A stretch of DNA of 64,000 nucleotides from Bacteroidales bacterium. Lineage in GTDB: Bacteria > Bacteroidota > Bacteroidia > Bacteroidales > FEN-979. Every line of letters starts with the position of its first letter. Position 1 is the first letter of the stretch. Under the pieces are notes generated by a model that had not been told where the DNA came from, did no database searches, and worked only from the letters and a program-made list of their open reading frames with translations. Where the stretch lies: contig JALNWE010000007.1 in assembly GCA_023231065.1 (NCBI GenBank), positions 5,842-69,841 on the forward strand, read 5' to 3'. Below are positions 29,398-60,677 of this stretch, one piece after another. The position numbers were made by a program, and so were the translations under genes.

Positions 29398-29474
29398 AGG
29401 AGATGGGGGATGGTCAATAGTCAATAGTCAATAGTCAATGGTCAATAGTCAATGGTCAATAGTCAATAGTCAAT
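29398..29474 (+). repeat. Heptanucleotide tandem array: 2 purine-rich units (AGGAGAT GGGGGAT) + 9 units RGTCAAT
   Basis: Direct reading: aggagat gggggat ggtcaat agtcaat agtcaat agtcaat ggtcaat agtcaat ggtcaat agtcaat agtcaat. It fills the sufD-sufS spacer. Confidence 0.95.
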
Positions 29475-30699
29475 GTTTTTGAGTTTTCCGATTGATCGGG
29501 TCCGCGCTGATTTTCCGATCCTGCATCAGCAGGTTTACAAGCGGCCTCTGGTTTATTTCGACAATGCCGCCTCCACGCAAAAGCCGGTGCAGGTCATTGA
29601 TGCCATCAGGCGCTATTATGAACAGGATAACTGCAACATCCACCGTGGGGTGCATTATCTCAGCGTTAAGGCTACGGAAGCCTTTGAGGAAACGAGAAAA
29701 GAGATCCGTGAATTCATTAACGCCCGCGACACACGGGAGATCATTTTTACTAAAGGGACCACGGAATCACTCAATCTTGTGGCTTCCTCTTTCGGGAAAC
29801 GATACATCCGTCCCGGCGATGAAGTGATCGCGACCATCATGGAACATCATTCCAATTTTGTCCCATGGCAGCAGATGTGCCTGGAATGTGGCGCAACGCT
29901 TAGGGTAGCGGGTATTGACGACCGGGGCATGTTGAATGTAGGGGAACTGTTTGGAATGATCAGTGAAAAAACCCGGATGATAACGCTTACCCATGTGTCG
30001 AATGTGCTGGGGACCATCAATCCGGTGAAAGAGATCATTGCTGAAGCGCACAAACATGGTATTCCCGTATTGATTGATGGCGCCCAGGGAATATCCCATC
30101 TACCGGTAGATGTGCAGGATATGGATTGTGACTTTTATTGCTTTTCAGGCCATAAGATGTATGGCCCCATGGGAATAGGCGTCCTGTATGGGAAGGAAAA
30201 ATGTCTCGAAGAATTGCCTCCTTATCAGATGGGGGGAGAAATGATCAAAGAGGTCTATGTTGATCACACGACTTTTAATGAGCTTCCTTTCAAATTCGAA
30301 GCCGGGACCCCTAACGTGGAAGGCGTTGCCGGCCTCCGCGCTGCCCTTCATTATCTGAATGAATTGGGGATGGACAATATCATGGATTACGAAGCCTCTT
30401 TGCTGAAATATGCGACTGAAAAGCTTGCCGGCATCGAGGGTGTCAGGTTTTATGGTACTTCGGATTGGAAAGCCAGTCTGATCTCCTTCCTTATTGGTAA
30501 GATCCATCCTTATGATGTCGGTATGATCATCGATAAAATGGGGATCGCGGTGCGCACCGGTCATCACTGTGCCATGCCCCTGATGGATTACCTTCATATT
30601 CCTGGTACGGTAAGGGCCTCCTTCGCTTTTTATAATACCATGGAAGAGATTGACTGGATGGCCCTGGCCGTTGCAAAAGCCAAAAAGATGCTGGAATAA
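29473..30699 (+). CDS. sufS: Cysteine desulfurase SufS (class V aminotransferase)
   Basis: 408 aa. FPIL...VYFDNAAS, PLP-lysine FSGHKMYGP, active-site loop RTGHHCA. Confidence 0.95.
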   Translation: MFLSFPIDRVRADFPILHQQVYKRPLVYFDNAASTQKPVQVIDAIRRYYEQDNCNIHRGVHYLSVKATEAFEETRKEIREFINARDTREIIFTKGTTESLNLVASSFGKRYIRPGDEVIATIMEHHSNFVPWQQMCLECGATLRVAGIDDRGMLNVGELFGMISEKTRMITLTHVSNVLGTINPVKEIIAEAHKHGIPVLIDGAQGISHLPVDVQDMDCDFYCFSGHKMYGPMGIGVLYGKEKCLEELPPYQMGGEMIKEVYVDHTTFNELPFKFEAGTPNVEGVAGLRAALHYLNELGMDNIMDYEASLLKYATEKLAGIEGVRFYGTSDWKASLISFLIGKIHPYDVGMIIDKMGIAVRTGHHCAMPLMDYLHIPGTVRASFAFYNTMEEIDWMALAVAKAKKMLE

Positions 30700-30731
30700 C
30701 AAAAAACCATGACTGAAACAATTCTTTTAAT

Positions 30732-31154
30732 ATGACGATTAAAGAAGCAGAAAAACAAATCATCCAGGAATTTTCGGTATATGATGACTGGCTTGATAAA
30801 TACAATTTTTTGGTAGAGATGGGTAAATCCCTGCCCATGATTGATCCGGAATATCAAACCGATACCTACCTGATTTCGGGTTGCCAGTCGAAGGTATGGC
30901 TGTACGCGAGGCTCAGTGACGGGAAGGTCATTTTCACGGCCGACAGTGACGCCATCATCACCAAGGGGATTATTTCGCTGCTGATCCGGGTATTTTCAGG
31001 TCAGGCCCCGGATGATATCCTCCATGCAGATCTTACTTTCATTGATCAGATCGGCCTGAAAGAAAACCTTTCGCCCAACCGCAGCAACGGCCTCGTTTCC
31101 ATGATCAAGCAGATGAAACTATATGCACAGGTCTTTAAAATGAAACAAGGTTAA
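30732..31154 (+). CDS. sufE: Cysteine desulfuration protein SufE
   Basis: 140 aa. SGCQSKVW active-site Cys region and FTADSDA..TKG are SufE hallmarks. Confidence 0.9.
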   Translation: MTIKEAEKQIIQEFSVYDDWLDKYNFLVEMGKSLPMIDPEYQTDTYLISGCQSKVWLYARLSDGKVIFTADSDAIITKGIISLLIRVFSGQAPDDILHADLTFIDQIGLKENLSPNRSNGLVSMIKQMKLYAQVFKMKQG

Positions 31155-31186
31155 AATCCCCTCACCTTTGTTTAAAATATCCTATC

Positions 31187-31519
31187 ATGGAGCCCCAACA
31201 TAAAATTCAACATACCCTCCTCGAAAATAATGTCATTTCGGCCCTGAAAACGGTTTATGATCCAGAGATCCCTGTCAATATCTATGACCTTGGGCTTATT
31301 TATCACCTGCAGATCAATGTTCCGGCCAACGATGTCTATATTTTAATGACCCTTACCACCCCCAATTGCCCGGTGGCTGATGATATTCCCGGGCAGGTGC
31401 AGGAAGCGGTGAAACAGGTAGAAGGAATTGGCGATGTTAAGGTGGAGCTGACCTTCGACCCACCCTGGGATAAAGACAGGCTCTCCGAAGCCGCACTACT
31501 GGATCTGGGACTACTTTAA
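31187..31519 (+). CDS. SUF-system Fe-S assembly protein (DUF59 / PaaD-like, SufT-type)
   Basis: 110 aa. VYDPEIPVNIYDLGLIY...MTLTTPNCP is the DUF59 signature. Last gene of the suf cluster. Confidence 0.85.
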   Translation: MEPQHKIQHTLLENNVISALKTVYDPEIPVNIYDLGLIYHLQINVPANDVYILMTLTTPNCPVADDIPGQVQEAVKQVEGIGDVKVELTFDPPWDKDRLSEAALLDLGLL

Positions 31520-31550
31520 CAAAAGAGGGAATCTAAAATGTAAACCCAAT

Positions 31551-31578
31551 TGTCATTGGTCAATTGTCAATTGTCAAT
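31551..31578 (+). repeat. Heptanucleotide tandem array, 4 units (TGTCATT GGTCAAT TGTCAAT TGTCAAT)
   Basis: Direct reading. Lies 10 nt upstream of the dxs TACTTTTG box. Confidence 0.9.
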
Positions 31579-31588
31579 CGATTCTTTG

Positions 31589-31596
31589 TACTTTTG
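31589..31596 (+). promoter_or_regulatory. -7 promoter box TACTTTTG (dxs)
   Basis: Exact match, 23 nt upstream of ATG 31620. Confidence 0.5.
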
Positions 31597-31619
31597 CTGA
31601 TTGAAATTAAAACCGGAAA

Positions 31620-33515: not shown

Positions 33516-33808
33516 TCGGGGCATCAGCGCTAAAATAATCCATACCAATCCGGGAATAATTAAGAAAATTTTTGTATTTTCATAAAAATTTATTGAATTT
33601 TACATTTTCACCACGAAGGGGTCAAGATGCCAATATTACGTATTCAATCATTTAATTTTTAGCATCTTGGAGATCTGGCGGTGAAAAGTGGTTTTCGGAG
33701 TGGGCCCATAATCTGATACAGAAGATATATGATCCTGAAAAAGTTCTTCCTGAAAAAAGTTGAAATAAATTATAAATGCCAGTGAATAAAACCCTTAAAA
33801 ACCAAATT

Positions 33809-34453
33809 ATGAAAAAACCGTTTTCTGTTTCCATTTATCCGGCCATCCTGCTGGTTTGCATGATATGCTCCTCCTGCAGTTCGCCTATAACCCTGACAAG
33901 CTGGAAAAATCCGGCTGATAACACCCAAATCTCAAAAGTGGTGGTATTCCCGCTTTTCGATAAGCTGGAATATACCAAACCTTTTGAGCAATCGATGGCC
34001 GCCTATTTCCAGTCCAAGGGGTTAAAAGCCATAGGGGCGCTGGATTTTCTGAATCCTTCGATCAAATATCCCATGCCTGATGTTATTAAAAAGATCGACA
34101 GCATGGGGGCCAATGCAGTTCTTGTATTCAAATATACCGGAACCGACAAATCACAGGATTATGTACCCCCAACGTATTATGGCGGCTGGGGCGGCGGCTA
34201 CTGGGGTGGCGGTTACTGGGGCGGCGGTTACTGGGGCGGCGGTGTTGCTACCGGCGGTTACTGGGTGACCACCTCGACCTTAAACCTGAAAGCATCGCTT
34301 TATGTTAAAGCTAACAAAGAAGCCATCTGGACCGGTGACATTACCGTGACGGACCCCAACTATGTGGACCAGGCGGCTGTTAATATGGCACAGGATATCT
34401 ATGCCGACTGGGTAAAAAATAACCTGGTCAAGGTTCAGCCATCCGGTAAATAA
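33809..34453 (+). CDS. Lipoprotein with Gly/Tyr/Trp (GGYWG) repeat
   Basis: Start moved to the ATG at 33809 (MKKPF...). Lipobox-like LVCMICSSCSS. Internal YYGGWGGGYWGGGYWGGGYWGGG repeat. No confident family assignment. Confidence 0.6.
   Translation: MKKPFSVSIYPAILLVCMICSSCSSPITLTSWKNPADNTQISKVVVFPLFDKLEYTKPFEQSMAAYFQSKGLKAIGALDFLNPSIKYPMPDVIKKIDSMGANAVLVFKYTGTDKSQDYVPPTYYGGWGGGYWGGGYWGGGYWGGGVATGGYWVTTSTLNLKASLYVKANKEAIWTGDITVTDPNYVDQAAVNMAQDIYADWVKNNLVKVQPSGK
34193..34267 (+). repeat. In-frame 15-bp tandem repeat (GGCGGYTACTGGGGY) encoding GGYWG x3, plus a partial fourth copy
   Basis: Direct reading within the lipoprotein gene. Confidence 0.85.
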
Positions 34454-34516
34454 CATCAATGGTCAATAGTCAATGATCAATGGTCAATGGTCAATGGTCA
34501 ATAGTCAATGGTCAAT
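34454..34516 (+). repeat. Heptanucleotide tandem array, 9 units (CATCAAT, then GGTCAAT/AGTCAAT/GATCAAT variants)
   Basis: Direct reading. 63 bp, occupying the whole spacer between two convergent genes. Confidence 0.95.
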
Positions 34517-35129
34517 AGCTTGCCAGCGCGGGCATCGTTCGGTCATACCGGGTATCGGTGACCAGTTTCAACATGAAATCAGCCACATCGGCCCGTGGGA
34601 CAGTCCTGGATGTCGGAATGCCGGGAATAATTTTATAGGTATTGGTCTTCGGTGAATCGGTAAGCCCCACAGGCCGGAGGATAACCCAGTCGGTATGGCT
34701 TTCCTGGATGATCTTAACCTGACGGAGTTTATCTGCAAACACATTTCTCAGAAACAGAGGAACAATGACTTTGCCGAACCAGAAACCTGCATCATTGCCT
34801 AAAATACCCGCGGATGACATACAGATAAACCGTTTCACACCGCATTCTTCTATGGCTTTCAGGATATTTCTGGTCCCTTCTGAAAGGATGGTCGATCGTT
34901 TGTTTGTGTCTATGCCAAGCGTACAGAGAACCGCATCCTGACCGGTGATTGCCTCTTTGACTTTTTGAAAGTCCGAAACATCTCCCCGGATGGTCCTCAG
35001 GTTTTTATGTTGAATGGTAACTTTTGAAGGTTGACGGGCAAAAGCGGTTACATGGAAACCTTGGTTCAAAGCCTGATAAACAATTAATATTCCGGTTCGT
35101 CCACTTGCGCCAAAAACTGCGATTTTCAT
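34512..35129 (-). CDS. NAD(P)H-binding (NmrA/atypical SDR-like) oxidoreductase
   Basis: 205 aa. N-terminal Rossmann motif MKIAVFGASGRTG. Length and pattern resemble flavin-reductase / NAD(P)-binding domain proteins. Confidence 0.8.
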   Translation of the reverse strand: MKIAVFGASGRTGILIVYQALNQGFHVTAFARQPSKVTIQHKNLRTIRGDVSDFQKVKEAITGQDAVLCTLGIDTNKRSTILSEGTRNILKAIEECGVKRFICMSSAGILGNDAGFWFGKVIVPLFLRNVFADKLRQVKIIQESHTDWVILRPVGLTDSPKTNTYKIIPGIPTSRTVPRADVADFMLKLVTDTRYDRTMPALASY

Positions 35130-35146
35130 TTGTAAATAATTCTGGA

Positions 35147-35240: not shown

Positions 35241-37013
35241 GTGTCTCATTCCCCTCTTTTTCGAAAGAAATCGATTGCTCATATTTTACAGGACTCCCGG
35301 CGCCAGGAAGGAGAGAAAGCAGAACTCAAAAAGAACCTGACTGTTTTTGATCTGACCGCGTTGGGGATAGCTGCTGTTATTGGTGCTGGAATTTTCAGTA
35401 CGATCGGCAACGCGGCTGCCAGCGGTGGCCCTGCCGTTTCGCTGCTTTTTCTTTTCACGGCGCTTACCTGTGGCTTTTCGGCTTTATGTTATGCCCGTTT
35501 TGCTTCTGTCATCCCCATCAGCGGCAGCGCTTATACTTATGCCTATGCCAGCTTCGGGGAACTGGTTGCATGGATCATCGGCTGGGACCTGATCATGGAA
35601 TATGCCATTGGCAACATCGCTGTCGCGATCTCCTGGTCTGATTATTTTACTGGCTTTCTGGGCGGGATCGGTTTGCAAGTGCCCGAATACCTGTGTGTCG
35701 ACTATCTTTCAGCGGCGCGGGGTTACCATACAGTGGTGGAAGGATTAGCCAAAGGTATTCCCTTCAATACTTTCAGCGATAGCCTCCGTGAATCCTTCAC
35801 GGCATGGCAGAACGCTCCTTTTATCGCGGGGATCAGGATCATCGCCGATATCCCGGCATTCTTCATTGTCATCTTTATCTCTGTACTCGTTTATATCGGG
35901 ATCTATGAGACCAAGGTAGCCAGCAATACCATGGTCATGCTGAAAATCGGGATTTTATTGCTGATTATTGGCGTCGGTTCCTTTTATATCAATACAAACA
36001 ACTGGCATCCTTTTGCCCCCAATGGGCTCTCAGGGGTGCTCAAAGGTGTTTCCGGGGTATTTTTTGCCTATATTGGATTTGATGCCATATCCACGACGGC
36101 TGAAGAGTGCCGGAATCCCCGCCGCGACCTGCCCCGTGCCATTATACTGGCGTTGGCCATCACCACGGTGATGTATATCATGATCAGTCTCGTCCTTACA
36201 GGGATGCTTCATTACAGCGAACTGGGCGTAGGCGATCCGCTGGCTTATGCTTTTCAGAAACTGAACCTGACCAGGCTTTCCGGTATTATCGCCCTAAGCG
36301 CTGTGGTTGCCATGGCCAGTGTGCTGCTCGTATTTCAGGTAGGCCAGCCCAGAATATGGATGAGCATGAGTCGCGATGGCTTACTTCCCCGGTCATTTTC
36401 GAAAATCCACCCCCGCTTTAAAACGCCCTGGTTTTCAACCATTATTGCCGGTATCCTGGTAGCCGTTCCTTCCCTGTTTATGAATCTGACCGAAGTGACC
36501 GACCTCACCAGCATCGGTACCTTATTTGCCTTTATCCTTGTTTCGGGCGGAGTCCTGGTCCTTGATGGGAAAGGGCGGAGCATGGAATCGGATCAGGAAG
36601 TAAAAGGGTTCCGGATCCCTTACCTGAACAGCCGTTATTTCCTGCCCCTGATATGGACCGGAATTTTGGTATTGCTCCTTTTCTGGCGCCCACCAGAATT
36701 CGAAAAGCTACTTTCTGCCATCTATCATCCGGCATCCTGTATCCTGTATCCTGCCCCGGCTGCCGGTTCACTCCTCCGGACCGAATTTCCCATCCTGATA
36801 TTCATCATCGCCGCGGCTATAATGACCTTTATGGGAGTCTGGAAACAACTTTCATTGATTCCCGTTCTTGGGTTGCTGACAAACTTTTACCTGATGTCCC
36901 AATTAGGCATTACAAACTGGATGCGTTTCCTTGTTTGGCTTGCCATCGGCCTGACCATTTATTTTCTTTATAGCCGGAGACATAGCAAATTGCGAAAATT
37001 GACTAATCCCTGA
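35241..37013 (+). CDS. Amino acid permease (APC superfamily)
   Basis: 590 aa, about 12-14 TM segments. GTG start. Motifs LGIAAVIGAGIF and AYIGFDAISTTAEECRNPRRDLP are typical of cationic amino-acid-transporter-type APC members. Confidence 0.85.
   Translation: MSHSPLFRKKSIAHILQDSRRQEGEKAELKKNLTVFDLTALGIAAVIGAGIFSTIGNAAASGGPAVSLLFLFTALTCGFSALCYARFASVIPISGSAYTYAYASFGELVAWIIGWDLIMEYAIGNIAVAISWSDYFTGFLGGIGLQVPEYLCVDYLSAARGYHTVVEGLAKGIPFNTFSDSLRESFTAWQNAPFIAGIRIIADIPAFFIVIFISVLVYIGIYETKVASNTMVMLKIGILLLIIGVGSFYINTNNWHPFAPNGLSGVLKGVSGVFFAYIGFDAISTTAEECRNPRRDLPRAIILALAITTVMYIMISLVLTGMLHYSELGVGDPLAYAFQKLNLTRLSGIIALSAVVAMASVLLVFQVGQPRIWMSMSRDGLLPRSFSKIHPRFKTPWFSTIIAGILVAVPSLFMNLTEVTDLTSIGTLFAFILVSGGVLVLDGKGRSMESDQEVKGFRIPYLNSRYFLPLIWTGILVLLLFWRPPEFEKLLSAIYHPASCILYPAPAAGSLLRTEFPILIFIIAAAIMTFMGVWKQLSLIPVLGLLTNFYLMSQLGITNWMRFLVWLAIGLTIYFLYSRRHSKLRKLTNP
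36734..36754 (+). repeat. Heptanucleotide array, 3 units (ATCCTGT ATCCTGT ATCCTGC) inside the permease coding sequence
   Basis: Direct reading. 21 bp, in frame, encoding SCILYPA. Confidence 0.85.
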
Positions 37014-46568: not shown

Positions 46569-46596
46569 ATTCAAAATTTGAAACTCGAAATTCAAC
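46569..46596. repeat. AT-rich heptad array (ATTCAAA ATTTGAA ACTCGAA ATTCAAC)
   Basis: Direct reading. Spans the rbfA stop codon (46592-46594). Shares the unit ATTCAAA with 60702-60729. Confidence 0.7.
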
Positions 46597-46933: not shown

Positions 46934-46965
46934 AATACAAAAGTACAAATAAAAACACAGAAAAT

Positions 46966-47036
46966 GCAGAGGGATGGAGGAGATAGGCGATAAAAGATAA
47001 GAGATGGGGGATAGGAGATGAGAGATGGGGGATGAA
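46966..47036 (+). repeat. Purine-rich 7-bp periodic array (ATAGGCG ATAAAAG ATAAGAG ATGGGGG ATAGGAG ATGAGAG ATGGGGG ...)
   Basis: Direct reading. GAGATGGGGGAT occurs twice (47001-47012, 47022-47033), 21 nt apart. Confidence 0.85.
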
Positions 47037-47045
47037 ATTTAAAAT

Positions 47046-47087
47046 AGTCAATTGTCAATTGTCAATTGTCAATAGTCAATTGTAAAC
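47046..47087 (+). repeat. Heptanucleotide tandem array, 5 units WGTCAAT + 1 degenerate (TGTAAAC)
   Basis: Direct reading: agtcaat tgtcaat tgtcaat tgtcaat agtcaat tgtaaac. Ends 3 nt before the TATCTTTG box of the ABC exporter gene. Confidence 0.95.
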
Positions 47088-47090
47088 ATA

Positions 47091-47098
47091 TATCTTTG
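47091..47098 (+). promoter_or_regulatory. -7 promoter box TATCTTTG (MsbA-like exporter; implies a leaderless or near-leaderless mRNA)
   Basis: Exact match ending 5 nt before ATG 47104. Confidence 0.45.
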
Positions 47099-47103
47099 CA
47101 TTT

Positions 47104-48924
47104 ATGAAGAGTTTTTTCAAGATCCTTCGTTTTGCCGGTCCATACTGGGTGTATGCCTTACTGAACGTAGTGTTCAACATTCTTGCCGTAATATTTTCAC
47201 TGGCATCCTTTGCCTTATTCATACCGGTCCTGCAGATGCTGTTTCACCAGATGGAGATTCCCGCGTCAGCGCCGCCACTTAAAATGGATTATGATGTCGT
47301 CAAGGATAATTTTTATTATTATACCGGGCAATTATTAAATCAATATGGAAATGAGAGAATGTTGATTTATATTGGTTTCGTTATCATCATTCTTTATTTT
47401 CTGAAGAATCTTTTCCGCTATCTGGCCATGTATTTTCTGGCAGTTGTCCGCAATGGGGTAGTAAAAGATCTGAGAAATGATCTTTATCTTAAAGTGCTGA
47501 TCCTTCCTTTATCCTATTTTAACGAAAAACGCAAAGGGGATATCATAGCCCGGATGACCAATGATGTGCAGGAAGTTGAGTGGTCCATCATGAGCTCGCT
47601 TGAAATGGCTTTCCGGGATCCGATCACGATCATTGCTTCCCTGGTGATCCTTTTCGTCATCAGCCCTTCACTGACCATCTTTGTTCTTGTTTTATTGCCC
47701 ATCAGCGGTTTGATCATCGGCAGGATCGGAAAAAGCCTGAAACGGACTTCGGATAAAGGGCAGAAAAAGATGGGTTTCATTTTATCGGTGATTGAAGAAT
47801 CCATTTCCGGTTTAAGGATCATCAAGGCATTTAACGCCATTGATTTTGCTGATAAACGATTCCGGAAAACCAATCAGGAATACAATCGCCTGATGATACG
47901 GCTTTATCGTAAAAGGGACCTTGCTTCCCCGCTCAGTGAATTTCTGAGCGCCTGCGTGGTTACCATCGTCCTGTGGTATGGTGGAAAACTGGTCTTCACG
48001 CCGGGTAATTTTCTTGATGCGGCAACATTCCTGATTTATCTGGGCATTTTTTCGCAATTGATGCCACCGGCCAAATCCATCACCCAGGCTTTTTATAACA
48101 TTAAGAAAGGAGCTGCCTCCATCGATAGGATCGAACAGGTCCTTTCAGAACCGGAAGTCATCGAAGAAAAACCGGAAGCCATAAGCAAAAAAGATTTCCG
48201 GTCGGATATAGAATACCGGGATGTGAGTTTCTCTTATGACACAGAACCGGTTTTGCATCAAATCAATTTAACCATCAGCAAGAGTAAGACCATCGCGGTT
48301 GTGGGCCCATCGGGTGGGGGAAAATCCACCCTCGTGGATCTTTTACCCCGGTTTTATGATTGCATAAAGGGACAGATCCTGATCGATGGTATCGACATCC
48401 GCGATCTCATCATCAGTGATTTGCGGGGATTGATGGGCATTGTTTCACAGGAGACGATCCTCTTCAACGATTCGGTCTTTAACAACATTGCCTTTGGCAT
48501 GGACAATGTCAGTGAATCGGATGTGATTTCAGCCGCCAAGGTGGCAAATGCCCATGAATTTATTGAAAAGATGCCGTTGGGATATAGTACCAACATAGGG
48601 GACAGGGGCGCCAAACTGTCAGGCGGGCAAAGACAACGCCTGAGCATTGCCCGCGCTGTTCTGAAAAATCCGCCCATTCTGATTTTAGATGAGGCCACAT
48701 CGGCATTGGATACCGAATCGGAAAGGCTTGTTCAACAAGCCCTGGAAAACCTGATGCGCAACCGTACTTCCATTGTTATTGCCCATCGTTTATCGACCAT
48801 TCAATTTGCCGACGAGATCATCGTCATGCAGAACGGCAGACTTGTTGAGCGGGGTACGCACAATAATTTACTGGCCACCAACGGGGTTTACCGGAAATTA
48901 TATGAATTGCAATCATTTAATTGA
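47104..48924 (+). CDS. ABC transporter ATP-binding/permease protein (MsbA-like exporter)
   Basis: 606 aa. 6-TM domain plus NBD with Walker A GPSGGGKST, signature LSGGQRQR and Walker B ILILDEATSALD. Confidence 0.9.
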   Translation: MKSFFKILRFAGPYWVYALLNVVFNILAVIFSLASFALFIPVLQMLFHQMEIPASAPPLKMDYDVVKDNFYYYTGQLLNQYGNERMLIYIGFVIIILYFLKNLFRYLAMYFLAVVRNGVVKDLRNDLYLKVLILPLSYFNEKRKGDIIARMTNDVQEVEWSIMSSLEMAFRDPITIIASLVILFVISPSLTIFVLVLLPISGLIIGRIGKSLKRTSDKGQKKMGFILSVIEESISGLRIIKAFNAIDFADKRFRKTNQEYNRLMIRLYRKRDLASPLSEFLSACVVTIVLWYGGKLVFTPGNFLDAATFLIYLGIFSQLMPPAKSITQAFYNIKKGAASIDRIEQVLSEPEVIEEKPEAISKKDFRSDIEYRDVSFSYDTEPVLHQINLTISKSKTIAVVGPSGGGKSTLVDLLPRFYDCIKGQILIDGIDIRDLIISDLRGLMGIVSQETILFNDSVFNNIAFGMDNVSESDVISAAKVANAHEFIEKMPLGYSTNIGDRGAKLSGGQRQRLSIARAVLKNPPILILDEATSALDTESERLVQQALENLMRNRTSIVIAHRLSTIQFADEIIVMQNGRLVERGTHNNLLATNGVYRKLYELQSFN

Positions 48925-49950: not shown

Positions 49951-51162
49951 ATGAAGCAACTTAAACATCAAATAGAAAGTTTATCGAAGTCTTTTTTTCA
50001 GGAGGTTCAGGATATCCGAAGGCGCCTTCACAAGTATCCGGAACTTTCGAAGGAGGAATTTCAAACGGCTGCATTCATCTGTAAAAAGTTGGATGGGTAT
50101 GGCATACCATATACCAGCGGAATTGCAGGGACCGGTGTTGCCGGATTGATAGAAGGGGTGGACCCTTCCTCCCGGTGCATTGCCCTCCGCGCCGATATGG
50201 ATGCCCTGCCGGTTGATGAGAAAAACGAGACTGAATATAAATCGGCCCATCCCGGTAAAATGCATGCCTGCGGCCACGATGTCCATATAGCCTGCCTGCT
50301 GGGAGCAGCCAGGATCCTGATGCAGGTGAGGGATCAGTTCGCGGGTACCATAAAACTGATCTTTCAGCCGTCGGAAGAAACTTATCCCGGAGGGGCCATT
50401 CAAATGATCGAAGCCGGGATCCTTGAAAATCCGAAACCGGAACTGATCATTGCCCAACATGTGATCAATAACCTGGATGCCGGCGATGTCGGTATGAAAG
50501 CAGGCCCTTATATGGCTTCGACCGATGAATTTTTCATCACGGTGAAGGGGAAAGGAGGCCATGCAGCCACACCCAATCAGGTTACCGATCCCATTCTGAT
50601 CGCGGCCCACATCATTGTTGCCCTTCAACAAATCGTTAGCCGGAACGCGGACCCGGTAATCCCATCGGTGGTATCCATTGGCAAGATCTCAGGGGAAGGG
50701 CGTACCAATATTATTCCATCGGAAGTAAAAATGGAAGGAACAGTCCGCACCTATAATGAGACATGGAGAAATGAGATTCATCAAAGGATAGAGAAAATTT
50801 CCAAGGCCTTGGCACAAGGGATGGGCGCCGATTGTGAGGTGAGAATTGCCCATGGGTACCCTTACCTTGATAATGACCCTGTCCTCACGGGGAAACTTTT
50901 TGGCTGGGCGGAGGATTATCTCGGTCCGGCCCATGTTCGCACGCTTGAACCGCGTATGACCGCTGAAGATTTTTCCTATTTTGCCGGACGCGTCCCTTCC
51001 TGCTTGTACCGACTTGGAATTTCCGATTATTCCAAAGGGATCAACGCGAACCTTCATACCGACACATTTGATGTGAACGAACGGTGTCTGGAAACCGGAA
51101 TGGCAATGATGTCCTGGTTTGCTGTCAACCTCTTAGCCCCTGAAAAAAGATCAGATAGATGA
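49951..51162 (+). CDS. M20D family amidohydrolase (second paralog)
   Basis: Start at ATG 49951 (MKQLKHQI). LRADMDALP, CGHDVH, FQPSEE. A TAATTTTG box lies 25 nt upstream. Confidence 0.85.
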   Translation: MKQLKHQIESLSKSFFQEVQDIRRRLHKYPELSKEEFQTAAFICKKLDGYGIPYTSGIAGTGVAGLIEGVDPSSRCIALRADMDALPVDEKNETEYKSAHPGKMHACGHDVHIACLLGAARILMQVRDQFAGTIKLIFQPSEETYPGGAIQMIEAGILENPKPELIIAQHVINNLDAGDVGMKAGPYMASTDEFFITVKGKGGHAATPNQVTDPILIAAHIIVALQQIVSRNADPVIPSVVSIGKISGEGRTNIIPSEVKMEGTVRTYNETWRNEIHQRIEKISKALAQGMGADCEVRIAHGYPYLDNDPVLTGKLFGWAEDYLGPAHVRTLEPRMTAEDFSYFAGRVPSCLYRLGISDYSKGINANLHTDTFDVNERCLETGMAMMSWFAVNLLAPEKRSDR

Positions 51163-53087
51163 GAATGCCACGCGGGTCCGGATTTACGTTTTTTTCTAAG
51201 GTCAGAAAAAAGAGGCTTTCTTTTTTCCTGTTTTTCATTGTTGTCAATTGTCAGTTATCAGTTGTCAATTGCTACTCCCAGGACCGGCGTCCCGACAGGC
51301 CTTTACTCCCATTTCAACAGAATGCCTCCCAGCAGGGGAATGACGAACAATTAGCCATCCAGTTTTACCAGGACCATGAATATGACAAAGCAGCCGAAAT
51401 TTATGAACGGTTGTTTCAGCAGAAGCCGGGATCCTATTACTATCAGTATCTTCTTTTTTGCTGGGTGGAGATCAAAGAGTATAATAAAGCTGAAAAGCTC
51501 ATCAAAAAGCAACAAAAAGCAGAACCAACCGCTCTCCGGTTCATGGTTGATATGGGTTATTTGAAATACCGGGAGGGAAACGAGGAAAAATCGAAGAAAA
51601 TTTATGAGGATGCCATCAGTAAACTTACCCCGAACCAGCAACAGATCGCGGATCTGGCAAATGCATTCAGCGCCAGGGGGGAATATGAATATGCCATTAA
51701 AACTTACCTCCGCGGACGGGATCTGTTAAAAAATTCCTATCCTTTTAACGTGGAGATGGCCGGTATATATGAACGTATGGGCGATTTTACAAGTGTGATA
51801 GAGCAGTATCTCGATCTTCTGGAAATCAACAGATCCTATATGAATACGGTCCAGGATAGGCTGCAGATGCTGTTATCCAATGATATTAACAATGAAAAGA
51901 ACGACCGCTTCCGAAAAGTTCTGTTAGCCAGGGCACAACAGTATCCTGATAAAATCTGGTATGCTGAATTGCTCTGGTGGTACTCTATTCAGCAAAAAGA
52001 TTTTGACCTGGCATTTATTCAGGGCAAAGCGCTTGACAAAAGATTGCAGGAAAGTGGCGACAGGTTGGTCCAGTTAGCCGGGCTGGCCGCATCAAACGAA
52101 GAATATAAGCTGGCCATGGAATGTTATCAGTACCTGATCGCCAAGGGAACGGATTTTCCTTTTTATGATCTGAGCCGGAGGGAGTTGATCAATACCAGGT
52201 ACCTCATGGCATTATCAGCCCCTTCTCCCTCCAAACAACTCCTGACCGGCCTGGAAAAAGAAATGAAAGAGGAGATCGGGAAATCACAGGAAGATCCTGA
52301 AAGTATTTCATTGACCAGAAACCTGGCCCATCTTGAGGCTTTTTATTTAAAGAAGACGGACGAAGCTGCTGCGTTGCTTGAAAATGCCATTGAAATTCCC
52401 GGGATCACTCCCCAGCAAAGAGCCGAGTGTAAAATTGAATTAGCCGACATACTCCTTTTTACCGATGACGTATGGGAAGCCACATTACTCTATCAGCAGG
52501 TTTATAAGGAATTTAAAAATGATATCATCGGGCAGGAGGCCAAATTCAAAAACACCATGCTCTCTTTTTATATTGGTGAATTCAAATGGGCTCTTGCCCA
52601 GGCGGATATCCTGAAGGCTTCCACTTCCAGGTTCATCGCCAACGATGCCATTGCTTTATCACTATTGATTAGCGAGGACTTAGACCCCGATAGCAATACC
52701 GTTGCATTGGGGTATTATGCGCGGGCTGACCTGCTGGATTACCGGAACGAAGAGGACCTTGCCCTTAAAACCCTTGATTCAATACCCCAATTATTCACAG
52801 AACATCCAATCCTTCAACAGGTTATATTTAAGAAAGCCATGATTATGCAAAAACAGGGCCAATTTATAAAAGCCGACTCGCTTTTCGGGCAGTTGGTCAT
52901 GGTTTATCCTGACGGGATCTTGGCCGACGAAGCCCTGATGTACCGCGCTTCGCTGACTGAGAAAAAACTGAACAACAAAGAGCAGGCGATGGCTTTATAC
53001 CAGGAGCTAATGGAAAAATACCCGGGGAGCATTTTTGTACCGGATGCGCGGAAACGGTTCAGGACGTTGAGAGGGGATCGGATGTAG
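51159..53087 (+). CDS. Tetratricopeptide-repeat protein
   Basis: 642 aa. Multiple TPR-like helical repeats (e.g. YDKAAEIYERLF, YEYAIKTYLRG). The start overlaps the upstream stop (ATGA). The N-terminal hydrophobic segment is encoded by a heptad repeat. Confidence 0.75.
   Translation: MRMPRGSGFTFFSKVRKKRLSFFLFFIVVNCQLSVVNCYSQDRRPDRPLLPFQQNASQQGNDEQLAIQFYQDHEYDKAAEIYERLFQQKPGSYYYQYLLFCWVEIKEYNKAEKLIKKQQKAEPTALRFMVDMGYLKYREGNEEKSKKIYEDAISKLTPNQQQIADLANAFSARGEYEYAIKTYLRGRDLLKNSYPFNVEMAGIYERMGDFTSVIEQYLDLLEINRSYMNTVQDRLQMLLSNDINNEKNDRFRKVLLARAQQYPDKIWYAELLWWYSIQQKDFDLAFIQGKALDKRLQESGDRLVQLAGLAASNEEYKLAMECYQYLIAKGTDFPFYDLSRRELINTRYLMALSAPSPSKQLLTGLEKEMKEEIGKSQEDPESISLTRNLAHLEAFYLKKTDEAAALLENAIEIPGITPQQRAECKIELADILLFTDDVWEATLLYQQVYKEFKNDIIGQEAKFKNTMLSFYIGEFKWALAQADILKASTSRFIANDAIALSLLISEDLDPDSNTVALGYYARADLLDYRNEEDLALKTLDSIPQLFTEHPILQQVIFKKAMIMQKQGQFIKADSLFGQLVMVYPDGILADEALMYRASLTEKKLNNKEQAMALYQELMEKYPGSIFVPDARKRFRTLRGDRM
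51242..51269 (+). repeat. Heptanucleotide array, 4 units (TGTCAAT TGTCAGT TATCAGT TGTCAAT) inside the TPR gene 5-prime end
   Basis: Direct reading. Encodes VVNCQLSVVNC of the predicted N-terminal hydrophobic segment. Confidence 0.85.
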
Positions 53088-53094: not shown

Positions 53095-53111
53095 GATAAG
53101 AGATGGGGGAT
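53095..53111 (+). repeat. Solo purine-rich repeat copy GATAAGAGATGGGGGAT
   Basis: 17-nt identity with 46996-47012. Lies between the TPR gene stop and the rsmA start. Confidence 0.8.
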
Positions 53112-53147: not shown

Positions 53148-53948
53148 ATGATACGACCAAAGAAGCATTTAGGCCAGCATTTTTTACGGGATGAAAACAT
53201 CGCGCAAAAAATCGTGGGTTACCTCAATCCGGAATATCCATTGGTATTGGAAATTGGTCCGGGAATGGGATCCTTATCAAAATATCTCCTTCAGGATCCC
53301 CGGTTTGACCCTTATTTCATGGAAGTGGACAGGGAAGCTGTAAGTTATTTGATATCGACTTTTCCCGAAATTTCAGGGAAGTTGATTGAGGCTGACTTCC
53401 TGAAATACGATTTATCCTGCTTTCCATCCCCCATCTCCCATCTCCCATCTCCCATCTCTTTCATCGGCAATTTTCCCTATAACATCTCCTCCCAGATCTT
53501 ATTCAAAGCCCTGGAATATCGACACCGGGTCAGGGAGGTTATCGGAATGTTCCAGAAAGAAGTGGCCCTCCGCGTGGCATCCCCTCCGGGAAACAGAACT
53601 TATGGGATCCTCAGTGTATTATTGCAGGCTTTTTTTGAGATCGATTATCTCTTTACGGTCAATGAAAATGTATTTGACCCGCCGCCCAAAGTAAAATCGG
53701 CCGTCATTCGCTTACGCCGCAATGAGGTAATATCCCTGGGATGCGATGAGGCTTTGTTTTTCCGCGTTGTTAAAATGGCCTTTAACCAACGGAGAAAGAC
53801 CCTGCGGAATGCGCTCCGTCCGCTTCTTGATAAATCCCTGTTATCGGACGACAGCGCGCTCAAGCAGATGCTGGACCTACGCGCCGAACGTCTGAATGTA
53901 AGCGATTTTGTGGCCCTCACCCTTGCTATTAAAGCAATAAGCCCCTGA
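53148..53948 (+). CDS. rsmA: 16S rRNA (adenine1518/1519-N6)-dimethyltransferase RsmA/KsgA
   Basis: Start at ATG 53148 (MIRPKKHLGQHFL). Motifs EIGPGMGSLS, GNFPYNISSQI, FDPPPKV, AFNQRRK. Confidence 0.9.
   Translation: MIRPKKHLGQHFLRDENIAQKIVGYLNPEYPLVLEIGPGMGSLSKYLLQDPRFDPYFMEVDREAVSYLISTFPEISGKLIEADFLKYDLSCFPSPISHLPSPISFIGNFPYNISSQILFKALEYRHRVREVIGMFQKEVALRVASPPGNRTYGILSVLLQAFFEIDYLFTVNENVFDPPPKVKSAVIRLRRNEVISLGCDEALFFRVVKMAFNQRRKTLRNALRPLLDKSLLSDDSALKQMLDLRAERLNVSDFVALTLAIKAISP
53424..53458 (-). repeat. Heptanucleotide array, 5 units (minus-strand reading GAGATGG x4 + GGGATGG) inside the rsmA coding sequence
   Basis: Plus strand reads ccatccc ccatctc ccatctc ccatctc ccatctc. Translated as PSPISHLPSPIS. 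Confidence 0.95.
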
Positions 53949-53982
53949 ATATAGTATCTTTACCGCGATTTATAATACCGGA

Positions 53983-55467: not shown

Positions 55468-55478
55468 TTCCAGCGATT

Positions 55479-57865: not shown

Positions 57866-57871
57866 GATGGA

Positions 57872-58273
57872 TCAGTGTACATAAAGCAGCGTATCTTTAA
57901 TGGATTGAGGGGGCATTTTAATATTGAAACTCCCATAATATGAATACCCGTTCAGATATACATAACAGTTGGCATAATAAATCCTTGGATAGAGCCGGGA
58001 AAAAACCACATGGCCAGCGCCGTCGGTTATGGAACGGCGGACCCATATTTTGTTATTCAGGCTATCATTGCTCAGGGCAAGGTTCAAATATGCCCCGGTC
58101 ATAAAAATCCCGTACTGGGTTTCAACAGTAACTTCCAGGGTGGCAGAGTCTGAGCTTTTATCCTCCCATGGCGGCAAATCTGCCTTTTCTGTGTCAAGTG
58201 TTTTTTTACAGGAAATGGAAAAAGTAAACACAATGACGAAAGAAAAAATCCAGGCTACAATTTTCCGGATCAT
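57872..58273 (-). CDS. Hypothetical lipoprotein
   Basis: 133 aa. Signal plus lipobox (FTFSISC). No recognisable family. Confidence 0.5.
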   Translation of the reverse strand: MIRKIVAWIFSFVIVFTFSISCKKTLDTEKADLPPWEDKSSDSATLEVTVETQYGIFMTGAYLNLALSNDSLNNKIWVRRSITDGAGHVVFSRLYPRIYYANCYVYLNGYSYYGSFNIKMPPQSIKDTLLYVH

Positions 58274-58306
58274 GGTAAATCTGATTTAGAAATGATTATT
58301 TTCTTT

Positions 58307-58900
58307 TCACAGGATTTTAAAGCCCAGACTTATGTTCCAAACGTTGTTGTAAGAATTGAAGGAATAATTCTCAACCGTTTTTATAAGCTCGTTGAGCCCG
58401 AGCTGATACCTTACATCGAAGGTGATTTTCCAGATATCGAGACCGGCTCCCGCCTGGATGGCCCAGTTGACCGAATTCAGGTCGCCGGTGGTTAATGGGG
58501 CAGGATCGGCGCCGCCATCAGCAATGCTTTTATTGACCACGAAAGAAGCCATCGGGCCAGCCATGAGCCTGACGTTTATAAAGTCGCCTTTCAACAGTTT
58601 GAAACCAACAAGGACGGGAACATCAATTGAGCCAATCTTGATGGTTTGCTTCCAGTCCGAAATATTGCTTGTAAAAACCCCACCCTGGGTGGTGTAATAT
58701 ACTTCGGGTTGGAGGAACAGTCTTTTTCCGACACGCACAAAAGCCCCGATCTGAAATCCTGATTTGAAATTTGTCGTAACGGAATCAATGTTGGTTGAAA
58801 GTTTGGCGGCATCATAACCAACTTTAATTCCAAGGGTAAACTGGCCAAAAGTAAATTCAGCGGCAAGGAAAACCAATGTGAACAGCAGTATTTTTTTCAT
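58307..58900 (-). CDS. Outer-membrane beta-barrel protein (porin/PorT-like family)
   Basis: 197 aa. Signal peptide MKKILLFTLVFLAA. Alternating amphipathic strands. Terminal aromatic ...ISLGFKIL. Confidence 0.7.
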   Translation of the reverse strand: MKKILLFTLVFLAAEFTFGQFTLGIKVGYDAAKLSTNIDSVTTNFKSGFQIGAFVRVGKRLFLQPEVYYTTQGGVFTSNISDWKQTIKIGSIDVPVLVGFKLLKGDFINVRLMAGPMASFVVNKSIADGGADPAPLTTGDLNSVNWAIQAGAGLDIWKITFDVRYQLGLNELIKTVENYSFNSYNNVWNISLGFKIL

Positions 58901-58974
58901 GGTGGGGAATTTAGGTTAAAAACAAAATTAGCAAATTGCAAGTAAAAGTAAAACTTTCAATCGTAAATTTAAAA

Positions 58975-60255
58975 TCAGAAATTATATCCGATCCTGTCGA
59001 AACCGGTATAGGGGACCAACGCTTTGGGGATCAGGATCCCTTCCGGGGTCTGGAAATTTTCAAGGAGCGCGGCAACAATCCGGGGAAGGGCCAAAGCGCT
59101 GCCATTGAGGGTATGGGCCAGATGGGTTTTTCCGGTCCCATCTTTGTAACGAAGTTTTAAACGGTTCGACTGGAAAGTTTCAAAATTGGAAATAGAGCTG
59201 ACTTCCAGCCAGCGTCCCTGGGCCGATGACCATACTTCCATGTCATACGTAAGGGCGGAAGTGAAACTCAGATCCCCGCCGCACAGTTTCAGCACCCGGA
59301 AGGGGAGTTCAAGTTTACGAATGAGCCCTGACACATATTCGCGCATCAACTCAAGGATTTCATAAGATTTATCAGGATGGGCGATCTGTACGATCTCTAC
59401 CTTGTCGAATTGATGAAGCCTGTTCAACCCGCGGACATCTTTCCCGTAGGATCCGGCTTCGCGGCGAAAGCAGGCGCTATAAGCTACATTTTTCAACGGG
59501 AGATCCTGGGAACGGAGGATCATATCCCGGTAAATATTGGTCACCGGGACTTCAGCCGTCGGGATCAGGTACAGATCATCAAGCCCGGCATAATACATTT
59601 GTGCGTCTTTGTCCGGAAGTTGTCCGGTGGCATAAGCAGAGGCTGCATTGACTACATAGGGTGGCTGAACTTCATGATAACCCGCTTTCAGGGCCTCTTC
59701 CAAAAAGAAGTTGATCAACGCCCGCTGAAGCCGGGCGCCTTTTCCTTTGTATAAAGGAAAACCGGACCCGGCGATCTTATTTCCCGTATTGAAATCGATC
59801 AGGTCATATTTTATTGCCAGATCCCAATGCGGAACTGCCGTGGCAGCAACCGGTACGATGTCCCCTTCCTGTAAAACAACAAGGTTGTCTTCGGATGTTT
59901 TTCCCGGAGGGACTGAAGCGTGAGGGAGATTAGGGACCCTTACCAGGAGATCATCCAGCTCTTTCTTTACCGATTCGAAAGCAATTTCCAGTTCTTTCGA
60001 CTGTTCCTTAAACCGGGTCGTTTTCTCTTTCAGCAAACCCGCTTCTTCTTTTTTACCCGATTTTAAAAGAATGCCAATTTCCCTGGCTGCCTGGTTGCCC
60101 TGTGCCTGAATGTCGTCAAGCTGTTTCTGGGTCTCGCGCCGCTTATCGTCCAGGTCAACAATATTTTGAATGATCTGTTCTCCCTGAAAATTTTTGATTG
60201 CCAGTCGGTCGATCACTTCCTGCCTGTGTTCGCGGATACAATTTAATTGTAACAT
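58975..60255 (-). CDS. serS: Seryl-tRNA synthetase
   Basis: 426 aa. N-terminal coiled-coil arm and class II motifs (FRREAGS, GSALA..R). Confidence 0.95.
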   Translation of the reverse strand: MLQLNCIREHRQEVIDRLAIKNFQGEQIIQNIVDLDDKRRETQKQLDDIQAQGNQAAREIGILLKSGKKEEAGLLKEKTTRFKEQSKELEIAFESVKKELDDLLVRVPNLPHASVPPGKTSEDNLVVLQEGDIVPVAATAVPHWDLAIKYDLIDFNTGNKIAGSGFPLYKGKGARLQRALINFFLEEALKAGYHEVQPPYVVNAASAYATGQLPDKDAQMYYAGLDDLYLIPTAEVPVTNIYRDMILRSQDLPLKNVAYSACFRREAGSYGKDVRGLNRLHQFDKVEIVQIAHPDKSYEILELMREYVSGLIRKLELPFRVLKLCGGDLSFTSALTYDMEVWSSAQGRWLEVSSISNFETFQSNRLKLRYKDGTGKTHLAHTLNGSALALPRIVAALLENFQTPEGILIPKALVPYTGFDRIGYNF

Positions 60256-60275
60256 ATAACGGGTTGTTTTGGAGG

Positions 60276-60283
60276 CAAAGATA
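60276..60283 (-). promoter_or_regulatory. -7 promoter box TATCTTTG (serS)
   Basis: Minus-strand match, 20 nt upstream of ATG 60255 and downstream of the rpmA terminator. Confidence 0.5.
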
Positions 60284-60296
60284 AATGATTTACGAT

Positions 60297-60330
60297 AAAA
60301 AAAATCGGCATCAGGGTTAGCTGTGCCGAT
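60297..60330 (-). terminator. Rho-independent terminator downstream of rpmA
   Basis: Minus strand reads ATCGGCACAG-CTAACC-CTGATGCCGAT followed by TTTTTTT. This is a 10-bp stem with one bulged A, about 40 nt after the rpmA stop. Confidence 0.6.
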
Positions 60331-60368
60331 TTGTTGAAAGGTTTAAATAAAATAAAACCCTTTGTTAT

Positions 60369-60638
60369 TTAGTTTACCGTTTCTTCAAAGGGTAAAACCG
60401 AAACATAGGAGCGGTCCTCTCTTTTTTTCTTAAACTCCACGATGCCATCGACCAGGGCAAAAAGAGTGTGATCTTTGCCGATCCCGACATTCAATCCCGG
60501 GTTGTGGACAGTACCGCGTTGCCGGACAATGATACTTCCTGATTTGGCAAGTTGTCCTCCATAAATTTTAACCCCTAAACGTTTGCTGTGTGATTCCCGG
60601 CCATTGCTTGAGCTACCTGCCCCTTTTTTGTGTGCCAT
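60369..60638 (-). CDS. rpmA: 50S ribosomal protein L27
   Basis: 89 aa. [23 protein letters not shown] is the canonical L27 N-terminus. Confidence 0.95.
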
Positions 60639-60649
60639 ATCTCTGAGTT

Positions 60650-60677
60650 ATTTACAATTGACAAATGACAATTTACG
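60650..60677 (-). repeat. Degenerate heptanucleotide array, 4 units (minus-strand reading CGTAAAT TGTCATT TGTCAAT TGTAAAT)
   Basis: Direct reading of the rplU-rpmA intergenic spacer. Confidence 0.75.

Follow-up and report, generated by a model that had tools for sequence, protein, structure and literature searches.

The DNA analysed here, hereafter called the window, is a stretch of 64,000 nucleotides (nt) from contig JALNWE010000007.1 of a Bacteroidales bacterium, in which tandem repeats with a unit of 7 nt recur between and within genes. The window holds at least ten such period-7 arrays in three unit families, NGTCAAT, GAGATGG/GGGGATG and ATTCAAA, and within the 64 kb six loci carry NGTCAAT units and four to five carry GAGATGG-type units. 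The genes flanking the arrays are sufBCDS-sufE-sufT, dxs, rbfA, ksgA, rplU, rpmA and those for an NAD-binding protein, a methyltransferase, an ABC exporter, an M20 peptidase and a TPR protein, i.e., housekeeping genes. The arrays are listed below by window position.

29398-29411, plus strand: two purine-rich heptads, GGAGATG GGGGATG, 1 nt past the sufD stop and abutting the 5' side of the next array
29412-29474, plus strand: (NGTCAAT)9 with N = A/G, 63 bp, which together with the two purine heptads fills the sufD/sufS spacer
31551-31578, plus strand: TGTCATT GGTCAAT TGTCAAT TGTCAAT, in the sufT(FeS_assembly_P)/dxs spacer
34454-34516, plus strand: (NGTCAAT)9 including the variants GATCAAT/CATCAAT, 63 bp, filling the spacer of two convergent genes from stop to stop
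46569-46596, no strand assigned: AT-rich heptads ATTCAAA/ATTTGAA/ACTCGAA/ATTCAAC, in the rbfA/methyltransferase spacer, both genes being on the minus strand
46966-47036, plus strand: purine-rich heptad array of GAGATGG/GGGGATG/GATAAAA types, in the divergent rbfA/ABC-transporter spacer (46949-47103)
47046-47087, plus strand: (NGTCAAT)5 plus one degenerate unit, N mostly T, in the same divergent spacer
51242-51269, plus strand: TGTCAAT TGTCAGT TATCAGT TGTCAAT, within the called open reading frame (ORF) 51159-53087 of the TPR protein
53095-53111, plus strand: purine-rich heptads GATAAGA GATGGGG GAT, located between the stop of the TPR gene and the ksgA start
53424-53458, minus strand: (CCATCTC)5 on the plus strand, which is GAGATGG on the minus strand, inside ksgA/rsmA
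60650-60677, minus strand: four degenerate NGTCAAT-type units in the rplU/rpmA spacer, 11 nt upstream of the rpmA ATG, identical in contigs L362 and L363
60702-60729, no strand assigned: AT-rich heptads ATTCAAA/ATTCCAA/ATTCCTA, overlapping the rplU stop codon
36726-36753, plus strand: CATCCGG CATCCTG TATCCTG TATCCTG, in the amino-acid permease ORF 35241-37013 (peptide HPASCILYPA)
10-23, minus strand: ATCCCAT x2, the reverse complement of the ATGGGAT purine-rich type, two units only

The original prediction, made from the sequence alone, had placed the arrays in gene spacers, within operons and even inside ORFs, and both the sequence and the gene neighbours bear this out. The arrays occupy their spacers almost entirely, and the operon spacers concerned are sufD/sufS, sufT/dxs, rplU/rpmA and rbfA/methyltransferase. 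The last unit of the 29412-29474 array contributes the AT of the sufS ATG (29473-29475), while the last unit of the 34454-34516 array contains the TGA stop of the minus-strand NAD-binding gene. The array at 31551-31578 lies directly upstream of a TACTTTTG -7-type box and 41 nt from the start codon, and that at 47046-47087 ends 2 nt short of a TATCTTTG -7-type box (47090-47097) and 16 nt short of the ABC-transporter ATG. All GTCAAT arrays are co-oriented except one, which is on the opposite strand and follows its operon. The two long arrays are each exactly 63 bp, as had been claimed. A further copy suspected at 10-23 is present as ATCCCAT x2, although with two units it could be due to chance; the array at 36726-36753 was missing from the original list.

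The arrays far exceed chance. A scan for (NGTCAAT)3, allowing at most one mismatch, gave 19 matches in the window against 0.00 expected from 100 dinucleotide-preserving shuffles. Our own detector, run as one procedure over periods 5-12 with a minimum array of 24 bp, returned seven arrays of period 7 (281 bp), one of period 8 and none of periods 5, 6 and 9-12. Tandem Repeats Finder likewise reports period-7 arrays at 29413-29474 (8.9 copies, 92% matches), 34456-34516 (8.7 copies), 31547-31578, 47043-47083, 51241-51271, 46995-47035 and 60702-60725, and CCATCTC x5 at 53424-53458 (96% matches). The arrays of the original list are real and dispersed, and all are found where they had been placed.

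The arrays are not assembly artefacts, a concern raised with the original prediction, as they recur in contigs from ENA, JGI and Logan. The ENA contig L365 (k141, 92.7 kb) is identical to the window across the 63-bp array at 34454, and the Logan contig L121 reproduces the array at 31552. In the JGI contigs L362 and L363, which come from two other samples, the rplU/rpmA spacer arrays are unchanged, L363 having three single-nucleotide polymorphisms in rplU. The Logan contigs L121, L364 and L366 stop at or within the two 63-bp arrays, which a short-k assembler is expected to be unable to cross. No differences in unit number were found between these independent assemblies, which represent the same or nearly the same strain.

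The comparison with relatives gives the first of our two main results. The nearest SufS sequences (80% identity) belong to lake metagenome-assembled genomes (MAGs) of Prolixibacteraceae/Draconibacterium type, and the relatives of both SufS and KsgA are uncultured Bacteroidales MAGs, in agreement with the Bacteroidota-type host that had been proposed. No relative closer than 80% SufS identity was found in the genome scan or the metagenome scan, and exact-protein look-ups returned identical or near-identical strains only. We gathered 160 suf loci, comprising 75 close relatives (SufS at least 67% identical, 650 kb) and 85 more distant Bacteroidota-type loci (653 kb). The close relatives contain 53 arrays of period 7 and 67 of period 8, with 0-3 for each other period; the distant loci contain 34 of period 7 and 6 of period 8, with 0-2 for each other period. 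Period clusters by locus, as 238 of 352 within-locus pairs share the same period compared with 180 ± 9 in shuffles. Additionally, 131 of the 144 arrays from the window and its relatives lie outside called ORFs and 13 inside, where the intergenic share of the sequence is about 9.5%.

The orthologous sufD/sufS and sufS/sufE spacers carry arrays in most relatives, but the units differ. Examples include AAGTGAG/AAGTGAA, (CGTCACC/G)17, AATTACG, AAAGCGA, GAAGCGA and GTAGGGA. An often recurring layout runs from the stop codon through purine-rich heptads and A/T-rich heptads to the start codon, and at the sufD/sufS junction heptad repeats are found in most relatives possessing the junction, clearly so in about 8 of 12. 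When identical units are collapsed per locus, the 144 arrays give 128 locus-unit combinations, and no unit occurs in more than four. We found no strong core shared across the units, only weak enrichment, e.g., of GTGA (15 observed, 3.1 expected), and a common core acting as a shared binding site was therefore rejected. The clade preserves the period of 7 or 8 nt and the choice of spacers but not the sequence of the unit, and a conserved period with a changing unit speaks against a sequence-specific function.

In some of the relatives, arrays of a single unit flank ordinary genes (sufS, sufE) in inverted orientation (L153 at 3965-3995 and 5223-5245; L226 at 9988-10018, 10496-10533 and 11214-11257). 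These inverted arrays alternate along the operon and could pair across a whole cistron in the RNA.

The window unit itself is widespread. An exact scan for (GTCAATN)5, with one genome per species, gave at least 120 loci, and the matches listed include Nostocales, other Bacteroidota, Chloroflexota, Acidobacteriota, Gemmatimonadota, Planctomycetota and others. Among these listed matches, arrays in co-directional spacers are sense in 26 cases and antisense in 40, so that a universal strand rule is rejected, while those inside ORFs are sense in 20 cases and antisense in none. The latter is due to the reverse orientation having TGA in every frame. One listed array, in Flaviramulus (L013), lies near ksgA, in a spacer that is not orthologous, and was dropped.

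A role of the arrays in RNA has to be weighed against these data. The arrays might be functional RNA elements, either A/U-rich landing pads for initiation independent of a Shine-Dalgarno sequence or periodic sites for single-strand-binding proteins such as S1 or cold-shock proteins (Csp), as argued for other heptamers by MacGregor (2015), with CspB binding heptamer repeats at one protein per unit (PMC4679880). The distance to the start codon is 0 nt at sufS, 11 nt at rpmA and 16 nt at the ABC transporter, and GTCAAT is on the sense strand of the downstream gene in all five window arrays that are co-directional or promoter-proximal and so define such a gene. The preserved heptads at the sufD/sufS junction are also in line with such a role. 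Furthermore, heptamers in co-directional spacers of the relatives tend to be A-rich on the sense strand (A>T in 34, A<T in 17; octamers are unbiased), which hints at some constraint at the RNA level. By folding prediction, five of six array regions in the window are no more structured than shuffles (z = -1.05 to +0.84), as would suit a landing pad. Only 46960-47105 departs from this (z = -3.2), as its purine heptads are predicted to pair with GTCAAT heptads in periodic 5-bp helices with G.U pairs; its position in a divergent promoter spacer means that it may never be contained in a single transcript. At gathering threshold, Rfam gave no matches in the window, and in 20 loci of the S23p gene introduced below only a tRNA and a CRISPR repeat. 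However, start-codon proximity is not seen for the arrays at 34454 and 31551 or for those in ORFs, and several window arrays are upstream of -7 boxes or between convergent genes, i.e., outside any 5' leader. The antisense majority of GTCAATN across phyla does not fit either, and since units are wholly different between related genomes, a specific binding protein would have to co-evolve with them in each lineage. We regard an RNA element as improbable.

Three arrays are situated inside ORFs, namely those of the TPR protein, ksgA and the permease. The 51242-51269 array codes for part of VVNCQLSVVNCY, the N-terminal hydrophobic segment (signal-peptide region) of the TPR protein, and the ENA contig, with genes called independently, has a product of equal length (642 aa) and thus the same start. 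The array in ksgA (ORF 53148-53948) encodes PSPISHLPSPIS, a loop immediately ahead of the GNFPYNIS motif of KsgA. This loop is hypervariable across the clade, in which KsgA homologues (P0002-P0120) range from 251 to 344 aa with repeat-peptide insertions at three loops, e.g., GHVDTGHVDSGHVDTG and RDAAHRVSKVDDAAHRVSKV. Such indel variation is unusually large for a conserved rRNA methyltransferase. As this loop and two others vary by repeat peptides, the array in the ORF represents repeat invasion of a permissive loop.

A third possibility is that the arrays are contingency or promoter-spacing switches, in which gain or loss of a unit alters promoter geometry or reading frame. Such behaviour is known for the 7-bp tandem units near promoters in Haemophilus hmw1A/hmw2A and the TTTTGAT heptads of Vibrio cholerae ctxAB, and graded effects of 7-bp promoter repeats are well established (PMC8262952). 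The arrays at 31551 and 47046 end right upstream of TAnnTTTG -7 boxes, as do arrays at sufE in relatives, so that a change in unit number would shift the upstream elements. However, the known cases are single virulence loci with documented unit variation or regulator binding, while the window arrays are at many housekeeping loci (suf, dxs, rplU/rpmA, rbfA, ksgA, ABC exporter), with no surface, virulence or restriction-modification gene beside them and no variation between assemblies of the same or nearly the same strain. Many arrays are also within operons or between convergent genes, and a change by one unit in the ksgA or signal-peptide array would cause a frameshift. Slipped-strand contingency switching, one of the functions originally suggested, is thus very unlikely.

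Promoters in Bacteroidota have a -33 TTTG and a -7 TAnnTTTG element. Given this promoter type, the TTGACA that had been pointed out in the reverse complement of the unit is of no help, and it was rejected as a -35 element. The remark that a 7-bp unit does not match the helical repeat is half true: it holds for a single unit, but three units make 21 bp, which is two turns.

The window arrays belong to a known class, the heptameric simple-sequence repeats (resembling the long simple sequence repeats, LSSR, and the short tandemly repeated repetitive sequences, STRR), and are not new as a class. They are tandem, dispersed and mostly intergenic, with an excess of period 7. That heptamers are over-represented in the genomes of many bacteria was already known in 2007 (Mrazek et al., 2007, as cited in PMC4692102), and the heptameric repeats of Calothrix PCC 7601, reported long ago, are still uncharacterised (PMC4692102). 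Arrays of GGGAATC in Xanthomonas and of GGGGA(T/C)T in Nostoc are intergenic and variable between related species, with some inverted pairs (PMC4692102; Rehm et al., 2015). In the literature the class is described as length-variable and of unknown function, with polymerase slippage as the suggested origin (PMC4692102; PMC4679880). TAACTGA and other heptamer direct repeats are found in Beggiatoaceae, Cyanobacteria and five Bacteroidetes, among them Paludibacter of the Bacteroidales (MacGregor, 2015; PMC4679880). The idea that such a family would be novel for the phylum therefore fails, and neither the class, its occurrence in the phylum nor even the GTCAATN unit is unique to the window.

The resemblance to each of these systems is partial. 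As in Xanthomonas and Nostoc, the window and its relatives show an intergenic excess of period 7, with the same neighbours having arrays of differing length and sequence between species, occasional inverted pairs and slippage as a suggested origin. In contrast, the units there are G-rich and capable of forming G-quadruplexes, while GTCAATN is A/T-rich and the purine-rich arrays, by inspection, have fewer than four G3 runs, so that we discarded a G-quadruplex for them. TAACTGA repeats, which are mostly "forward" and just upstream of start codons, with binding of S1 or Csp suggested (PMC4679880), share with some of the window arrays the forward orientation a few nt from a start codon, and with the window the mixture of heptamers, the presence in Bacteroidales and the rare copies in ORFs only in the stop-free orientation. 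The array at 51242 even includes TCAGTTA, the reverse complement of TAACTGA. However, the main unit of the window is another one, a forward stop codon occurs only in its GTCAATA units, and several of its arrays do not precede a start codon.

The STRR in the strict sense, as Mazel and colleagues are said to have described them in 1990 in heterocystous cyanobacteria, reportedly comprise STRR1 (CCCCAGT), STRR2 (TTGGTCA) and STRR3 (CAACAGT). Likeness to STRR, which had been noted for the window arrays from the start, is apt: both are head-to-tail 7-nt units in several families per genome, mostly intergenic including operon spacers, and of unknown function. The window units are one base from the STRR2 unit in the GTCATTG register, and one base from the GGGGA(T/C)T type; a single unit, GTCATTG at 31552, is the STRR2 unit itself. 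In contrast to STRR, the window host is a Bacteroidales bacterium, its units (NGTCAAT, GAGATGG/GGGGATG and ATTCAAA) are not the canonical STRR1-3, and 8-nt and 7-nt units are equally frequent in its sister genomes. Among the matches listed, exact (GTCAATN)5 occurs many times in the Nostocales Calothrix, Fischerella, Nostoc and Tolypothrix. STRR as the sole comparison is nevertheless too narrow, as the unit is found in many other phyla.

These likenesses could suggest that the family was acquired horizontally from cyanobacteria, with GTCAATN resembling STRR2 and GGGGATG resembling the STRR1-type GGGGA(T/C)T. Apart from the repeated Nostocales matches and the GTCATTG unit that opens the 31551 array, the purine-rich unit is one base from the Nostoc GGGGATT (PMC4692102), and an S23p subfamily with arm units common to Cyanobacteria and other phyla (see below) would be a conceivable vehicle. 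However, at least six further phyla have the unit, no cyanobacterial DNA flanks the arrays, and chance recurrence of one heptamer is expected among thousands of arrays over 185,000 genomes. The units of close relatives are also quite different, which makes the family young and lineage-specific. We consider such a transfer most unlikely of the explanations discussed here.

The reading we favour, and hold to be rather probable without being secure, is that the window arrays are short, non-coding, fast-turnover repeats generated by slippage and recombination, the Bacteroidales counterpart of STRRs and LSSRs, which are tolerated in spacers. Slipped-strand mispairing and unequal recombination would create arrays, change their length and replace them, one 7-nt unit per step, with a probable step of 8 nt in sister genomes. 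Recombination between arrays would then homogenise them within a genome and give rise to genome-specific unit families. Arrays in operon spacers are simply transcribed, as linkers that are A/U-rich and predicted to be unstructured. Arrays are retained only where 7n extra bases are harmless, i.e., in gene spacers, which they occupy from the stop codon up to the start codon or promoter, and in permissive protein loops. They have no conserved sequence-specific role, as seen from the turnover of units and the absence of an orientation or structure rule.

Several points weigh against this reading. Slippage in situ alone leaves one unit family at six or more loci in 31 kb unexplained, and why 7 and 8 are preferred over 6 or 9 is not accounted for either; that the polymerase sets the step size is something we infer. 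The local sense-strand bias, seen in all five informative window arrays and in the A-richness among relatives, is left unexplained, and a process of fast turnover finds no counterpart in the constant unit numbers of the assemblies, which are of the same or nearly the same strain. Finally, the strong link to S23p genes described below suggests an active dispersal route that slippage and recombination do not require.

This link is our second main result. In several relatives, a gene of about 120 aa, located upstream of sufE, is enclosed by octamer arrays in inverted pairs; it encodes the PF05635 23S rRNA-intervening sequence protein/TIGR02436 four helix bundle protein (E = 1e-33 to 1e-37), here S23p. 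The protein has sub-threshold similarity to the Avd protein of diversity-generating retroelements (DGR), and its PDB relatives 2GSC and 2RLD have five chains each. The window arrays are of the same sort as the inverted ends of these S23p cassettes in the relatives and in many phyla. In Coxiella, an intervening sequence (IVS) with an S23p ORF has terminal inverted repeats that RNase III cuts (Warrier et al., 2016; PMC4990558) and carries 3-4 copy-variable GACAGAT heptamers ahead of the start codon (PMC4990558).

Two independent sets of loci were used to examine the cassettes. Set 1 comprises 80 S23p loci from many phyla (L282-L361), found from an alignment of seven S23p sequences, and set 2 comprises 80 loci of the Nostoc-type S23p subfamily (L369-L448). 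In set 1, a period-7/8 array lies within about 220 bp of the S23p gene in 62 of 80 loci and on both sides in 32 of 80. The period is 7 in 38 loci and 8 in 22, with periods 5, 6 and 9 in five in total. In 49 of 80 loci the two flanks share an exact inverted match of 12 nt or longer, compared with 2 of 80 shuffle controls. S23p genes also stand out from other genes of the same loci, with an array on at least one side in 69% versus 14%, arrays on both sides in 27% versus 2% and an inverted match of at least 12 nt in 50% versus 5%. In set 2, flanking arrays are present in 64 of 80 loci, 63 of which are of period 7. Here the unit family ACAGG(G/T)N goes with the S23p subfamily in Cyanobacteria, Chloroflexota, Acidobacteriota, Planctomycetota and a gammaproteobacterium, whose S23p proteins are 55-85% identical; as these arms accompany the subfamily across phyla, the cassette including its arms is horizontally mobile.

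The subfamily L369-L415, 55-85% identical, is found in Nostocales, Chloroflexales, Acidobacteriota, Planctomycetales, Armatimonadota and a gammaproteobacterium, a spread that, judged from the sequences, points to recent cross-phylum transfer of the cassette.

The orthologous padR/sufE spacer shows arrays coming and going with the cassette. It is 119-140 bp without arrays in nine relatives lacking S23p, and 626-1057 bp in ten relatives with S23p, of which eight have clear and two degenerate flanking arrays. In the eight with clear arrays, one arm changes with the other between genomes, and the downstream arm in relatives abuts the -7 box of sufE. Examples of cassettes are L133 7455-8251, L139 7295-8622, L145 7261-7941 and L354 740-1215; the last, between nuoC and nuoD of a Hyphomicrobiales genome, has a predicted 31-bp terminal stem (z = -4.4). 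We found no description of this array-cassette architecture in the searchable literature, and S23p is not in PADLOC.

Three further observations concern the cassettes. Some empty padR/sufE spacers (L127, L132 and others) contain a short hairpin-like sequence of about one arm unit and its complement, e.g., GGGTGAAC-CC-GTTCACC, which could be a deletion footprint or a seed. The S23p gene at padR/sufE is inverted in two MAGs (L143 7433-7798 and L205 8885-9250) relative to L133/L139/L145, which fits inversion via recombination between inverted arrays. About 10-40 nt upstream of the S23p ATG, cassettes of Bacteroidales have a conserved motif TTT(T)CCGATTAAG(C) (L126, L133, L137, L139, L159, L302), perhaps an RNA element or an internal promoter; in the latter case the S23p transcript would not include the upstream arm.

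The evidence for a link between cassettes and arrays is strong, while that for derivation of the window arrays from cassettes is circumstantial. It is a tentative possibility that solo arrays are orphan or derived ends of mobile S23p cassettes of the form [array]-[S23p]-[inverted array]. The cassette would move between spacers and phyla and spread unit families, and its arms would pair into an RNase III-type RNA stem, as in the 23S IVS. In addition to the enrichment over control genes, the persistence of ACAGG(G/T)N across phyla, the padR/sufE comparison, the predicted stem of L354 and the Coxiella precedent, of 99 solo arrays at a distance of 0.4-2.5 kb from an S23p gene, 32 have the same unit as that gene, where 6.1 were expected, and the set 1 loci contain 19.6 solo 7/8-mers per 100 kb. 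GTCAAT-type arms flank S23p in Tamlana (L080), and (GTCAATC)n lies directly beside S23p in an Acidimicrobiia MAG (L030) and a MAG labelled Bacillota (L043).

However, neither tblastn nor an iterated hidden Markov model search found S23p or a remnant of it in the 64 kb of the window, and a six-frame search of its open segments of at least 25 codons gave no S23p match better than E = 1.7. The GTCAAT arrays of the window are co-oriented but for one, and the only inverted arms, 53095-53111/53426-53442 (17 nt, 88% complementary), are no better than chance pairs. Lacking both S23p and inverted arms, the window arrays are solo arrays. Arrays are also mostly solo elsewhere, as S23p is within about 300 bp at 3 of the 120 (GTCAATN)5 loci listed, and the arms in close relatives are G/C-rich 8-mers, whereas the window arrays are A/T-rich 7-mers. 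Causality could also be reversed, with cassettes recruiting a repeat type that is already abundant, and we know of no mobility mechanism or enzyme for the cassette. The comparison with the 23S IVS of Coxiella and Leptospira with its S23p ORF is similarly divided: 7/8-nt arrays make up the inverted arms in relatives and many phyla, but the cassettes found here are in mRNA spacers and not in 23S rRNA, and tandem 7/8-mer arms are not described in the literature searched.

One may go further and suppose that STRR-type arrays in general are the cis-acting ends of a mobile, IVS-like, selfish cassette built on a pentameric, Avd-like S23p, that solo arrays are its orphan ends or seeds in Nostocales too, and that S23p or a partner machinery sets both period and unit. 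We put this forward as speculation, which we find doubtful to a similar degree as the origin of the window arrays from cassettes; slippage and recombination remain our preferred account of the window.

The results of main value are that the clade conserves the period and not the sequence, and the lead to S23p cassettes. They extend STRR-like heptamers to an uncultured freshwater Bacteroidales clade, and the problem of the origin of heptameric repeats gains a concrete handle in arrays that form inverted S23p arms and units that travel with S23p subfamilies. If the link holds genome-wide, two orphan puzzles would be joined, the nature of the S23p/IVS elements and the accumulation of heptamers in bacteria, and both would become testable in tractable hosts, e.g., Nostoc and Xanthomonas.

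Other repeats were seen in the window. Adjoining the ATCCCAT x2 at 10-23 is an imperfect 22-bp direct repeat, GGGGGGACAGGATAGCCGGAAT x2, at 39-83 (78% matches). A 15-bp tandem repeat at 34186-34243 (3.9 copies, 93% matches) encodes GGYWGG repeats in a 225-aa protein (33776-34453) without a Pfam match. At the other end, 61640-64000 encodes part of a 3039-aa type IX secretion system (T9SS) cargo protein (GEVED, CarboxypepD_reg, Por_Secre_tail), which continues past the window end and is located at 330-9449 in L367.

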